Assembly: GCF_030384885.1 (NCBI RefSeq) | Contig: NZ_CP128613.1 | DNA: 64,000 bases | Source of the DNA: Escherichia coli | Lineage (GTDB): Bacteria; Pseudomonadota; Gammaproteobacteria; Enterobacterales; Enterobacteriaceae | Reading direction: 5' to 3' (one strand) | In this document: positions 16,401-22,786 of the stretch, one piece after another | Layout: every line of letters begins with the position of its first letter | Position numbering within the stretch: the stretch's first letter is position 1 | Program-made: the position numbers and the translations under genes | The notes under the pieces: model-generated | Database searches by the model: none | What the model was told of the DNA's origin: nothing | The model's input: the letters and a program-made list of their open reading frames with translations, nothing else

Positions 16401-16902
16401 CATCAACCAGAACAATCGCCGCGTGACAATCGGCCTGAACAACATGATCTGGCATTACGACAAAGACCTGAGTGGGTACTCACTCGGTCAGGGCGGTTAC
16501 TACAGCCCGCAGGAATACCTGTCGTTTGCCATTCCGGTGATGTGGCGTGAGCGGACAGAAAACTGGTCGTGGGAGCTGGGGGCGTCTGGTTCGTGGTCGC
16601 ATTCGCGCACCAAAACCATGCCGCGGTATCCGCTGATGAATCTGATCCCGACTGACTGGCAGGAAGAAGCTGCGCGGCAATCCAACGATGGCGGCAGCAG
16701 TCAGGGCTTTGGCTATACGGCGCGGGCATTACTTGAGCGTCGCGTCACATCCAACTGGTTTGTCGGTACGGCAATTGATATCCAGCAGGCGAAAGATTAC
16801 GCGCCCAGCCATTTCCTGCTCTACGTACGTTATTCCGCCGCCGGATGGCAGGGTGACATGGATTTACCGCCGCAGCCGCTGATACCTTACGCCGACTGGT
16901 AA
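13429..16902 (+). CDS. bcsC: Cellulose synthase outer-membrane/TPR subunit BcsC (1157 aa)
   Basis: ORF track; signal peptide, long TPR region, C-terminal beta-barrel; overlaps bcsZ end by 19 nt. Confidence 0.95.
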
Positions 16903-16983
16903 GTTTTCAGATAGCGCCTCTCTTAATGCCGCTGCGATCGGGTATACTCGGGCGGCAATCTGGGATTTCCGGGGGGAGACAAT

Positions 16984-18972
16984 TTGCGCGTAAGTCGCTC
17001 GTTAACAATCAAGCAGATGGCAATGGTGGCAGCCGTTGTCCTGGTGTTCGTTTTTATTTTTTGCACCGTTTTGCTGTTCCATCTGGTCCAGCAGAATCGC
17101 TATAACACGGCTACGCAACTGGAAAGCATTGCTCGCTCTGTCCGCGAACCCTTATCTTCTGCCATTTTGAAAGGCGATATTCCCGAAGCGGAAGCTATTC
17201 TTGCCAGCATTAAACCGGCAGGCGTGGTCAGCCGTGCCGATGTGGTGCTGCCTAACCAGTTCCAGGCGCTGCGTAAAAGTTTTATTCCAGAGCGTCCGGT
17301 GCCGGTAATGGTTACTCGCATGTTTGAGCTACCGGTGCAAATCTCGCTGGGCGTTTACTCGCTGGAACGTCCGGCAAACCCGCAGCCAATTGCCTATCTG
17401 GTGCTACAGGCGGATTCCTTCCGCATGTATAAGTTCGTGATGAGCACCCTCTCAACGTTAGTGACCATTTACTTACTTTTGTCGTTAATATTGACGGTGG
17501 CGATTAGCTGGTGCATTAACCGCCTGATTTTGCATCCGTTACGCAATATTGCTCGTGAACTTAACGCCATCCCAGCCCAGGAGCTTGTTGGTCACCAACT
17601 GGCATTACCACGTCTGCATCAGGACGATGAAATCGGTATGCTGGTGCGCAGTTACAACCTCAACCAGCAATTGCTGCAGCGCCATTATGAAGAACAGAAC
17701 GAAAATGCGATGCGCTTCCCGGTGTCGGATTTGCCGAACAAAGCCTTGCTGATGGAGATGCTGGAGCAGGTTGTCGCGCGTAAACAAACCACCGCGCTGA
17801 TGATTATCACCTGTGAAACCCTGCGTGATACTGCGGGCGTGCTGAAAGAGGCGCAACGAGAAATTCTGCTGCTGACGCTGGTGGAAAAACTCAAATCGGT
17901 ACTGTCGCCACGTATGATCCTCGCGCAAATTAGTGGTTATGACTTTGCTGTCATTGCCAACGGTGTACAGGAACCGTGGCATGCTATTACTTTAGGTCAG
18001 CAAGTGCTCACTATCATGAGCGAGCGCCTGCCGATTGAACGTATTCAACTTCGTCCGCACTGTAGCATTGGCGTGGCGATGTTCTACGGCGATCTCACCG
18101 CCGAACAGCTTTACAGTCGCGCTATTTCTGCGGCATTTACCGCTCGCCATAAAGGTAAGAATCAGATTCAGTTCTTTGATCCGCAGCAGATGGAAGCCGC
18201 CCAACAGCGGTTGACGGAAGAGAGCGATATCCTTAATGCACTGGAAAATCATCAGTTTGCGATTTGGTTACAGCCACAGGTCGAGATGACCAGCGGTAAA
18301 CTGGTCAGTGCGGAAGTGTTACTGCGTATCCAGCAACCGGATGGCAGTTGGGATCTGCCGGATGGCTTAATCGATCGCATTGAGTGCTGTGGGCTGATGG
18401 TTACCGTCGGTCACTGGGTGCTGGAAGAGTCCTGTCGACTGCTGGCTGCCTGGCAAGAGCGCGGCATTATGTTGCCCTTGTCGGTAAACCTCTCAGCGCT
18501 GCAACTGATGCACCCGAATATGGTAGCGGATATGCTGGAACTGTTAACCCGCTATCGCATTCAGCCGGGAACACTGATTCTGGAAGTGACAGAAAGCCGA
18601 CGTATTGACGACCCTCATGCAGCGGTGGCAATCCTCCGCCCGTTGCGTAATGCCGGCGTTCGGGTGGCGCTGGATGATTTCGGCATGGGCTACGCAGGGC
18701 TGCGTCAGCTGCAGCATATGAAATCGTTGCCAATCGACGTGTTAAAAATCGACAAAATGTTTGTTGAAGGCTTGCCGGAAGATAGCAGCATGATTGCTGC
18801 AATTATCATGTTGGCGCAAAGCCTGAACTTACAAATGATTGCCGAAGGCGTGGAGACTGAAGCACAACGCGACTGGCTGGCAAAAGCGGGCGTTGGTATT
18901 GCCCAGGGCTTCCTTTTTGCTCGCCCACTCCCTATTGAAATCTTCGAAGAGAGTTACCTGGAAGAAAAGTAG
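16984..18972 (+). CDS. pdeK: c-di-GMP phosphodiesterase PdeK/YhjK (HAMP - degenerate GGDEF - EAL), start probably TTG
   Basis: ORF track 662 aa beginning at TTG 16984 preceded by gggggga RBS; EAL motifs present (ELTE..., DDFGMGYAG); alternative ATG starts at 17017/17023. Confidence 0.8.
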
Positions 18973-19118
18973 CTACCCCAAACTGATTACAAAACTTTAA
19001 AAAGTGCTGGTTTGTGCGAGCCAGCTCAAACTTTTTAACCTTTTTGTTTCAATTATGATCCAGGTACATTTCTGTGATGTTGTCTGGGTGTTATTTTAAG
19101 GCCGCAGGTACCCCATAA

Positions 19119-20441
<1,323 letters not shown>

Positions 20442-20448
20442 TCTCACC

Positions 20449-20486
20449 ACTTATGCCCGCACTCCCTTCCCCGAGTGCGGGTGTTT
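20449..20486 (+). terminator. Putative intrinsic terminator after dctA
   Basis: Inverted repeat cccgcactc / gagtgcggg followed by gtgtttg. Confidence 0.45.
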
Positions 20487-20660
20487 GCGCATAATTGACC
20501 CCTGTGCCTGAACTTACCACCTGGGTGAGTTCAGGTTTATTTCACTTCTTCCGTGACATTTTCATGTTCTTGCGGTCTAACACGAAGTGTTTTTAATGTC
20601 ATTTAGACTGACCGACAACGGGCAGTTTTTTATTACCAGGATAGTTGATCAGGGGTTCAC

Positions 20661-22157
20661 ATGCAGGGCACAAAAATTCGACTTTTAGCGGGCGGTTTGC
20701 TGATGATGGCCACTGCTGGCTATGTGCAGGCAGATGCGCTCCAGCCTGATCCAGCATGGCAACAGGGGACGCTTTCCAACGGTTTACAGTGGCAAGTGCT
20801 GACCACGCCCCAGCGTCCCAGCGATCGCGTTGAAATTCGCCTGCTGGTTAATACCGGTTCGCTCGCCGAAAGTACACAACAGAGCGGTTACAGTCACGCC
20901 ATCCCTCGTATTGCGTTAACGCAAAGCGGTGGCCTTGAAGCAGCACAGGCGCGTTCATTGTGGCAGCAGGGGATCGACCCTAAACGCCCGATGCCGCCGG
21001 TAATTGTCTCTTATGACACCACGCTGTTTAATCTGAGTTTGCCCAATAACCGTAACGACTTGCTGAAAGAAGCGCTCTCTTATCTGGCAAATGCCACTGG
21101 CAAACTGACTATCACGCCAGAAACCATCAACCACGCGCTGCAAAGTCAGGACATGGTGGCAACCTGGCCTGCCGATACTAAAGAGGGCTGGTGGCGCTAT
21201 CGTCTGAAAGGATCAACCTTGTTAGGTCACGATCCTGCCGATCCGCTGAAACAACCCGTTGAAGCGGAAAAGATTAAAGATTTCTATCAGAAATGGTACA
21301 CCCCGGATGCAATGACGCTGCTGGTGGTGGGAAACGTGGATGCGCGCTCGGTTGTCGACCAAATCAACAAAACGTTTGGCGAACTGAAAGGCAAACGTGA
21401 AACACCGGCTCCGGTGCCGACGCTTTCTCCGCTGCGTCCTGAAGCGGTGAGTATTATGACCGATGCGGTACGTCAGGACCGGTTATCTATCATGTGGGAT
21501 ACGCCGTGGCAGCCTATTCGTGAATCAGCCGCACTGCTGCGCTACTGGCGTGCGGACCTGGCCCGTGAGGCGCTGTTCTGGCACGTTCAGCAAGCGTTAA
21601 GCACCAGTAACAGCAAAGACATCGGTCTTGGATTTGACTGCCGTGTGCTGTATCTGCGTGCGCAGTGTGCCATCAACATCGAATCACCAAACGACAAGCT
21701 GAACAGCAACCTTAATTTGGTAGCGCGTGAGCTGGCAAAGGTTCGCGATAAAGGTCTGCCGGAAGAAGAGTTCAATGCGTTAGTGGCGCAAAAGAAACTG
21801 GAGCTGCAGAAACTGTTTGCCGCCTATGCGCGAGCTGATACCGATATTTTGATGGGTCAGCGGATGCGTTCGTTGCAAAATCAGGTCGTTGATATCGCGC
21901 CGGAGCAATATCAGAAACTGCGCCAGGACTTCCTTAACAGCCTGACGGTGGAGATGTTAAATCAGGATCTGCGTCAGCAGTTGTCGAACGATATGGCGTT
22001 AATTCTTCTGCAGCCGAAAGGCGAGCCAGAATTTAACATGAAAGCGTTGCAGGCGGCCTGGGATCAAATCATGGCCCCATCTACTACTGCTGCCACAACC
22101 TCAGTTGCCACGGATGACGTACATCCTGAAGTGACGGATATTCCACCCGCACAGTAA
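20661..22157 (+). CDS. yhjJ: Periplasmic M16-family peptidase-like protein YhjJ (498 aa)
   Basis: ORF track; signal peptide; size and position match yhjJ. Confidence 0.85.
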   Translation: MQGTKIRLLAGGLLMMATAGYVQADALQPDPAWQQGTLSNGLQWQVLTTPQRPSDRVEIRLLVNTGSLAESTQQSGYSHAIPRIALTQSGGLEAAQARSLWQQGIDPKRPMPPVIVSYDTTLFNLSLPNNRNDLLKEALSYLANATGKLTITPETINHALQSQDMVATWPADTKEGWWRYRLKGSTLLGHDPADPLKQPVEAEKIKDFYQKWYTPDAMTLLVVGNVDARSVVDQINKTFGELKGKRETPAPVPTLSPLRPEAVSIMTDAVRQDRLSIMWDTPWQPIRESAALLRYWRADLAREALFWHVQQALSTSNSKDIGLGFDCRVLYLRAQCAINIESPNDKLNSNLNLVARELAKVRDKGLPEEEFNALVAQKKLELQKLFAAYARADTDILMGQRMRSLQNQVVDIAPEQYQKLRQDFLNSLTVEMLNQDLRQQLSNDMALILLQPKGEPEFNMKALQAAWDQIMAPSTTAATTSVATDDVHPEVTDIPPAQ

Positions 22158-22360
22158 TAAATCACCCGGCAGCGTTTCTTCTGCGCTGCCGGGATTAACG
22201 GTAATAAATTAGTTACCGTGATATAACCGCAGATATTTTTCCTGGCACGGCGGTAGCGCGCAGATAACCATTCATTATTAAAATAAACTTACCGTAGAGT
22301 GGGTTTAATTATTTATTAGCTGAATAAATTATACCGGTGCCTCCTGGAAGGAGTGAGTTT

Positions 22361-22786
22361 ATGCTTGTGTTAAAATCACAATCGATTGGATTCAGGATTT
22401 CCACAGCTTATTTATCTTTAACATATACAGAGTCTGATGGCGTCAAGATTAAAGTAGATGCTCTGGAGTTAATATCAACAGAGAGAGATTATGTTCAAAT
22501 TGAACTGGTCTTCACTACTGTTGCTGAAGTTAAGTGTGCTACCGTCAATTTTTATGAAGCCAACTATAACAATATTGTTATTAAGAAGGTTGATGGTGAA
22601 AATCTGGACTCCGGTATATATCAAGTAATGAATTCTGTACCGCTTGAAGAAAAAGAGAAATTATATGATCCTAAAAAACGGTTGAAGTTAAAACATTATA
22701 TTATAGCAGGTTATGATAGTTATGTTGAGATTTTAGCTACTGGTTTTAGCTGTATACGATGCCAGGCAATAGATGGTGTTAAATAA
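22361..22786 (+). CDS. Hypothetical protein (141 aa), AT-rich accessory ORF 1
   Basis: ATG at 22361 preceded by ggaaggagtg RBS (track ORF 22337..22786); low GC; no recognised family. Confidence 0.5.
   Translation: MLVLKSQSIGFRISTAYLSLTYTESDGVKIKVDALELISTERDYVQIELVFTTVAEVKCATVNFYEANYNNIVIKKVDGENLDSGIYQVMNSVPLEEKEKLYDPKKRLKLKHYIIAGYDSYVEILATGFSCIRCQAIDGVK

Follow-up and report, generated by a model that had tools for sequence, protein, structure and literature searches.

The window analysed here, a 64-kb stretch of the E. coli chromosome, carries the gene pdeK (also named yhjK and hmsP) on its forward strand, between bcsC, which ends at 16902, and dctA, at 19155. The sequence at 16971-16986 is almost certainly the ribosome-binding site and start codon of this gene, of which translation begins at a TTG codon (UUG in the mRNA, 16984..16986). 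This start is supported because three independent lines of evidence, namely the annotation record, a published experiment by tetracycline-inhibited ribosome profiling (TetRP), and comparative genomics, agree upon it, and together they bear out the original prediction that this TTG, rather than either of the ATG codons that follow it, heads pdeK. The coding sequence (16984..18972) comprises 662 codons and a stop, and specifies, in order, transmembrane helix 1, a GAPES3 domain, transmembrane helix 2, a HAMP domain, a degenerate GGDEF domain and an EAL domain. The TTG start of pdeK is already known from RefSeq, from EcoCyc-era records and from published start-site profiling.

The pdeK reading frame is closed on its 5' side by an in-frame TAA (16924..16926), and no ATG, GTG or TTG is found in frame between this stop and TTG 16984, so that no standard start codon further 5' could head the 662-codon open reading frame. 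Ahead of the TTG, in the sequence ...ttccGGGGGGAGAcaatTTGcgcgtaagtcgctcgttaacaatcaagcagATGgcaATGgtg..., six consecutive G and the AGA after them (GGGGGGAGA, 16971..16979) contain the Shine-Dalgarno core GGAG (16975-16978). The original prediction named this motif correctly but placed its beginning at 16972, whereas the run begins at 16971. The predicted distance of 4-5 nt to the TTG is accurate, there being 4 nt ('caat') after GGGGGGAGA and 5 nt ('acaat') after GGAG. We read the pairing as a GGAG core of 4 bp, to which one G.U pair may be added, so that a Shine-Dalgarno sequence is indeed present and its description as 'strong' is a slight overstatement. Likewise, the start codon is TTG as claimed, but 'non-canonical' is an imprecise term for a codon that is among the three standard bacterial starts. 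Pairing with the Shine-Dalgarno sequence is the established means of positioning the 30S subunit; at pdeK, GGAG 16975-16978 would pair with the anti-Shine-Dalgarno sequence, and the initiator tRNA would then read the UUG at 16984, five bases downstream, to begin a 662-residue protein with the N-terminus fMet-Arg-Val-Ser-Arg. As the first start-type codon of a long open reading frame, with a purine-rich site complementary to the 3' end of 16S rRNA 5 nt upstream, inside the usual range of about 4-9 nt, the pdeK start belongs to the class of Shine-Dalgarno-led UUG starts; it does not belong to the class of near-cognate starts typified by the AUU of infC, because UUG is a member of the AUG/GUG/UUG set. 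The motif GGAG-N4-8-TTG occurs 14 times in the 64-kb window versus approximately 35 times expected from shuffled sequences, which makes it rarer than chance but not rare, and it therefore carries no evidential weight without context; the copy at pdeK is real by virtue of its position, its conservation and a published footprint of initiating ribosomes.

The PGAP annotation (WP_001266326.1) and the curated MG1655 record (NP_417986.4, b3529) both give a 1989-nt coding sequence beginning at this TTG. In MG1655, pdeK occupies 3683630..3685618 of NC_000913.3 (U00096.3) on the minus strand, its first bases being TTGCGCGTAAGT, and the K-12 start, which is both the annotated one and the TetRP call, lies at an identical codon within an initiation region identical to that of the window strain; the latter is not a K-12 strain, and its PdeK differs from that of MG1655 at four residues. 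In a PGAP-annotated genome, where the gene is named hmsP, the coding sequence opens exactly at the base equivalent to 16984. A 241-nt query around the site has matches of at least 99% identity in 5,424 of 5,426 complete E. coli genomes, always with 'hmsP' and 'bcsC'.

An older version of the record points elsewhere. The pdeK coding sequence in the 2006 K-12 record was 1950 nt long (649 aa) and therefore began at the ATG of codon 14 (17023..17025); some gene callers still make 649-aa calls from ATG 17023, and these circulate in public data. ATG being the commonest start codon, translation might be supposed to begin at ATG 17023 or at the ATG of codon 12 (17017..17019), with the TTG-led frame upstream serving as an untranslated leader. 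Neither ATG is preceded by a Shine-Dalgarno sequence: the claim that these first in-frame ATGs lack a ribosome-binding site is sound, no GGAG-like sequence being found ahead of 17017 or 17023 (TTAACAATCAAGCAG followed by ATG). We assign next to no probability to a start at either ATG, and consider the idea effectively refuted already by the profiling and conservation evidence that follows. The two ATGs at codons 12 and 14 are ordinary internal methionines of a protein begun at TTG 16984.

Direct evidence of initiation comes from the TetRP data of Nakahigashi et al. 2016 (PMC4909307), who list yhjK in row 51 of their Table S2 with a new start at a TTG located -39 nt from the 2006 ATG. Subtracting 39 nt from 17023 gives 16984, and so the TetRP site is the TTG discussed here. 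The TetRP signal in three samples is 37.6, 53.1 and 21.1 at the TTG, but 0, 0 and 0 at the 2006 ATG (PMC4909307), which argues against initiation at ATG 17023. The TetRP start of yhjK coincides with that of the 2014 re-annotation (difference zero); of the 95 starts re-annotated in that year, 63 agree with TetRP, yhjK among them (PMC4909307). Translation-initiation profiling had been proposed as a check on the TTG start; that check has in effect already been performed, with the signal at the TTG. The 'N'-peptide found' column of Table S2 is blank for yhjK (PMC4909307); a tryptic or Arg-only N-terminal peptide would probably escape detection, because Arg2 leaves just Met-Arg. There are no yhjK, pdeK or hmsP entries in the supplements of TRAINSPOTTER, Giess 2017 and Fijalkowski 2024, which concern start sites and N-terminomics, and a literature search found no paper devoted to the start codon of pdeK.

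The TetRP table also gives a '2nd initiation candidate' for yhjK at +21 (PMC4909307), which we infer to be the GTG of codon 21 (17044..17046). This raises the idea of dual initiation, with TTG 16984 as the main start and a minor internal start (17017, 17023 or GTG 17044) producing a shortened PdeK isoform. Nakahigashi et al. 2016 document other genes of E. coli with two starts, and the TTG-initiated cdsA is a further such case. The resemblance of cdsA to pdeK extends to a UUG start led by a good, conserved Shine-Dalgarno sequence, and to a history of mis-annotation at a downstream ATG that was later corrected; the two genes differ in that multiple functional initiation codons of cdsA have been demonstrated by experiment, whereas at pdeK the evidence supports one strong site. 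The absence of TetRP signal at ATG 17023 counts against an internal start there, and GTG 17044 is a poorly conserved codon inside transmembrane helix 1, without a Shine-Dalgarno sequence, the product of which would miss half of that helix. The limited specificity of second-candidate calls is conceded by Nakahigashi et al. themselves. A shortened isoform made alongside the full-length protein is very unlikely on this evidence.

The start was compared among Enterobacteriaceae by scanning one genome per species, which yielded 80 loci of 65-98% protein identity in Escherichia, Citrobacter, Salmonella, Enterobacter, Klebsiella, Raoultella, Kluyvera, Kosakonia, Leclercia, Buttiauxella, Cedecea and other genera. 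In all 80 loci, the tblastn match begins at query residue 1. An alignment anchored on the start codon shows the TTG to be invariant in 81 of 81 sequences, with GGAG kept 5-7 nt upstream of it; in Escherichia this GGAG occupies -9 to -6, and in most genera -11 to -8. No constraint is seen from -12 to -60. Within codons 2-15, the first and second positions are near-invariant, the exceptions being Leu codon 7, with synonymous TTA/CTN exchanges, and codon 14, with a single change; every degenerate third position varies. Parsimony counts of changes, made on a neighbour-joining tree of codons 31-400, give 2-11 for each third position in codons 2-11 and 2-16 in codons 2-15, 11-23 for each upstream non-coding site, and none for the three bases of the TTG. 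The three-base periodicity of substitutions begins exactly at the TTG (+1) and not before it. Judged from these alignments, the pattern is the one normally left by a coding region opening at TTG 16984. Codons 2-11 (16987..17016), which an ATG start would leave untranslated, show a purely coding signature, with many synonymous changes and no change at the protein level across the 80 species.

Part of this conservation has to be read with the retrieval of the loci in mind. The peptide TIKQMAMV (residues 8-15) was one of six peptide patterns used in the locus scan, and was the sole route to 56 of 79 loci, for which reason the conservation of residues 8-15 arises partly by construction. The same applies to the conservation of Met12 and Met14 in Enterobacteriaceae, which might otherwise favour a start at one of the ATGs but is partly a product of how the locus set was built, and to the placement of residues 2-15 at rank 1 of 635 conservation windows, which is partly circular through retrieval by TIKQMAMV. 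None of the six search patterns covers residues 2-7, the TTG or the Shine-Dalgarno sequence. The comparison of TTG with ATG or GTG at the start codon is unbiased by TIKQMAMV, because a switch of start codon leaves the peptide unchanged.

More distant orthologs, at 29-52% identity, were obtained by an exhaustive HMMER search of representatives of 50%-identity clusters. N-termini were listed for six of them, two of which read MRVRRSLTRKYIVIM and MQVQRSLTLTQLLYV, and the N-terminal tail is kept in orthologs down to 42% identity. At the homologous position, four orthologs (L083, L085, L086 and L088) have a TTG with a preceding GGAG, L087 has a GTG, and L089, which is possibly a paralog because it is not beside bcsC, has an ATG; in L090, the start is shifted 8 codons upstream, to ATGATG. 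A stop codon is found three codons upstream of the TTG in L088. Met12 is absent from L088 (replaced by Y) and from L089 (replaced by L), so that the alternative of starting at ATG12 or ATG14 is unavailable in these lineages, the proteins of which still begin at the same place. The absence of Met12 from distant orthologs that begin at the codon equivalent to the TTG is a further argument against the ATGs of pdeK as starts. The HmsP-family phosphodiesterases encoded beside bcsC have in common with pdeK the N-terminal peptide MR[VI][SR]RSLTIKQM and, mostly, the TTG start; they differ in that a GTG or ATG, or a start 8 codons further upstream, is used by some of the distant members.

The product of pdeK is a membrane-bound c-di-GMP phosphodiesterase encoded beside the cellulose synthase operon. 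Matches to Pfam profiles consist of GAPES3 (residues 36-155), HAMP (178-231, at 21.2 bits slightly below the 25-bit cutoff), a weak GGDEF match (247-394, 44 bits) and a strong EAL match (415-648, 204 bits), and the sequence SGYDF replaces GGDEF in the PdeK translation. The NCBIfam equivalog profile for HmsP (NF008807) matches PdeK with 780.6 bits (cutoff 733), residues 2-659 aligning with profile positions 1-663 of 670, so that position 1 of the profile falls on the second residue of the protein begun at the TTG; pdeK shares with the HmsP family both this equivalog match and the gene order bcsC-hmsP-dctA. Richter et al. 2020 described PdeK as a GAPES3-HAMP-GGDEF(degenerate)-EAL protein with an intact EAL domain, measured phosphodiesterase activity of the cytoplasmic part of E. 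coli PdeK in vitro, and found that PdeK docks with DgcC on BcsB, where it acts as a local sink of c-di-GMP for cellulose synthase. The characterization of the product in the original prediction as a degenerate GGDEF-EAL phosphodiesterase is thereby confirmed, by the Pfam architecture, by SGYDF and by the findings of Richter et al. 2020.

Residues 12-35 of PdeK are hydrophobic and GAPES3 is periplasmic, from which the N-terminus is predicted to be cytoplasmic. Codon 12, the first of the two ATGs, is the internal Met that opens transmembrane helix 1, and the 11 residues before it would, on the predicted topology, constitute a basic cytoplasmic tail. The tail bears three positive charges (R2, R5 and K10), and by the positive-inside rule, positive charges are expected in a cytoplasmic tail; its basic character is consistent with an N-in topology that would place GAPES3 in the periplasm. 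A start at either ATG would strip this tail from transmembrane helix 1, in agreement with the prediction that such a start would remove N-terminal sequence, and the part lost, with R2, R5 and K10, is highly conserved.

Given that pdeK starts at TTG 16984, a separate question is whether the identity of the codon matters. The reading towards which we lean, by slightly better than an even chance, is that it does not: PdeK output would not be limiting, and the conservation of the TTG would reflect chance, mutation bias or local context. Distant orthologs that carry GTG or ATG instead, and retain the gene, are consistent with this reading. The conservation of the first base is less easily accommodated. 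Both of the changes of the T in TTG that preserve a start (T->A and T->G) are transversions, and on the tree used above the fourfold-degenerate sites of pdeK, 63 in number, average 10.7 transversion events each; one of the 63 sites, like the T of the TTG, has none, and 0 of 63 are fully invariant. Approximately 10 changes would be expected at the T under neutrality, but 0 have occurred, and there are 0 switches from TTG to ATG or GTG among the 80 Enterobacteriaceae species. Within E. coli, the 61 nt around the start are identical in 5,367 of 5,424 complete genomes, no exact ATG or GTG version of this 61-nt region is present in the 5,424, and in the most divergent E. coli variant examined, the changes are solely upstream of the Shine-Dalgarno sequence. 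From sequence comparison, the absence of any switch from TTG to ATG or GTG hints at selection on the identity of the codon, and the invariant T could also be constrained for another reason.

The literature on start codons can be brought to bear on both sides. Belinky et al. 2017 found that selection genome-wide favours AUG, and that non-AUG starts have better-conserved Shine-Dalgarno sequences. The long retention of UUG at pdeK is mildly notable because it goes against this genome-wide trend towards AUG, which weighs against a codon identity without function, and the association of a non-AUG start with a well-conserved Shine-Dalgarno sequence matches the pdeK locus. On the other side, Hecht et al. 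regarded UUG as a standard start, used by approximately 3-4% of genes, with 10-100% of the output of AUG in reporters, and He et al. 2017 found that, in vitro and within an optimised initiation region, UUG performed about as well as AUG. The penalty for UUG may therefore be small, given this range in reporters and parity in vitro, and the ability of UUG to match AUG in a good context favours the reading that codon identity at pdeK is without function. In the literature searched, no report was found of PdeK abundance, of the level of PdeK as a function of the start codon, or of a dependence of pdeK expression on the level of IF3.

Several possible elements of the leader were considered. RNA structure that would mask the Shine-Dalgarno sequence and start codon was rejected, the fold of 16955-17045 (-26.2 kcal/mol) being unremarkable relative to shuffled sequences (z = -0.43), as was a small UUUCC/GGAGA hairpin in the role of a masking element, which is not conserved in other genera. 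An Rfam scan of 16700-17300 returned a chance-level match alone (E = 0.52, 12.8 bits versus a gathering score of 86.7 bits), and consensus scans detected no promoter or terminator in the spacer between bcsC and pdeK. A hairpin or palindrome with TATACT at 16927-16957 is conserved in Escherichia, Citrobacter and Salmonella only. A precedent for a regulatory start codon is infC, whose AUU start serves the autoregulation of IF3. The likeness to pdeK is that a sub-optimal start discriminated by IF3 could in principle tune pdeK output; the differences are that the AUU of infC is a near-cognate codon, whereas UUG is a standard one, and that the start region of pdeK is without significant RNA structure.

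Two selective interpretations of the conserved TTG may be set beside the reading that codon identity is without function. The first, which takes up the suggestion of the original prediction that the start codon may set low expression, and which is possible though we hold it with less than even confidence, is that the UUG has been kept by purifying selection, the combination of a sub-optimal start with a conserved Shine-Dalgarno sequence holding PdeK output at a modest level; modest output would suit an enzyme that acts locally, docked on the cellulose synthase complex. The second is more speculative, and we consider it rather doubtful: the UUG together with a fixed Shine-Dalgarno sequence would have been selected across the Enterobacteriaceae to cap or condition PdeK output, and the 11-residue basic tail, which is present only with the TTG start and is among the best-conserved parts of the protein, would have a function of its own, perhaps in docking to BcsB or DgcC, in signalling or in insertion into the membrane.

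The finding that pdeK starts at TTG 16984 is correct and ordinary, and its value is mainly one of annotation hygiene. The 649-aa models that begin at ATG 17023 drop a conserved cytoplasmic tail, and the 662-aa form is advisable for expression constructs of PdeK and for N-terminal fusions. Should selection prove to maintain the TTG, pdeK would neatly illustrate how a start codon can tune a locally acting c-di-GMP enzyme.

The window is not K-12 DNA, as a comparison of 16602-22602 with MG1655 (L002) shows: PdeK has four residue differences, and both bcsC and pdeK carry dispersed synonymous changes. The 61 nucleotides around the pdeK start are free of differences. The Shine-Dalgarno region (16971-16983, plus strand), compared with loci L009-L082, has a register that varies by genus: Escherichia has 5 nt between GGAG and the TTG, with GGAG inside a run of six G residues, and most other genera have 7 nt, with GGAG in the context tGGAGAg. 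G-run length varies within E. coli: at least one genome, L091, has five G residues. Distant HmsP-like genes exhibit start-codon turnover at the equivalent of the pdeK TTG (position 1501 of each locus): GTG in L087; ATG in L089, the gene of which does not adjoin bcsC; and CTG in L090, where the start has shifted eight codons upstream to ATGATG.

The bcsC-pdeK spacer contains a hairpin (16927-16957) with TGCCGC/GCGGCA arms, between which is a near-palindrome, CGGGTATACTCG, that includes TATACT. This hairpin is kept in Escherichia, Citrobacter and Salmonella, and is not present in the loci compared from Enterobacter, Klebsiella and Kluyvera. Consensus scans called neither a promoter nor a terminator here; the hairpin could be a stem-loop at the 3' end of bcsC, a -10 element of pdeK, or a protein-binding site.

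A table of Nakahigashi 2016 (PMC4909307) includes a second initiation candidate for yhjK at +21 from the 2006 ATG, which we infer to correspond to the GTG at codon 21 (17044-17046, plus strand), within transmembrane helix 1. This candidate is probably noise, because conservation of the codon is poor and no Shine-Dalgarno sequence precedes it.

PdeK residues 2-15 (16987-17028, plus strand), which comprise a short cytoplasmic tail and the beginning of transmembrane helix 1, are the top-scoring 14-residue window for conservation in the 80-species set (0.999, versus a mean of 0.834), a rank that is partly circular because TIKQMAMV was among the patterns used in the locus scan from which the set was built. 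The EAL catalytic motifs score below residues 2-15 in this comparison. Judged by residues 2-7 and by unbiased HMMER representatives, the tail is still conserved down to 42% overall identity. PdeK gene models of 649-650 aa without the first 12-13 residues (P0002, P0037, P0038, P0113-P0119), one of which is the "putative diguanylate cyclase" of E. fergusonii ATCC 35469, are still in circulation in public protein sets, and from these models the conserved tail is missing.
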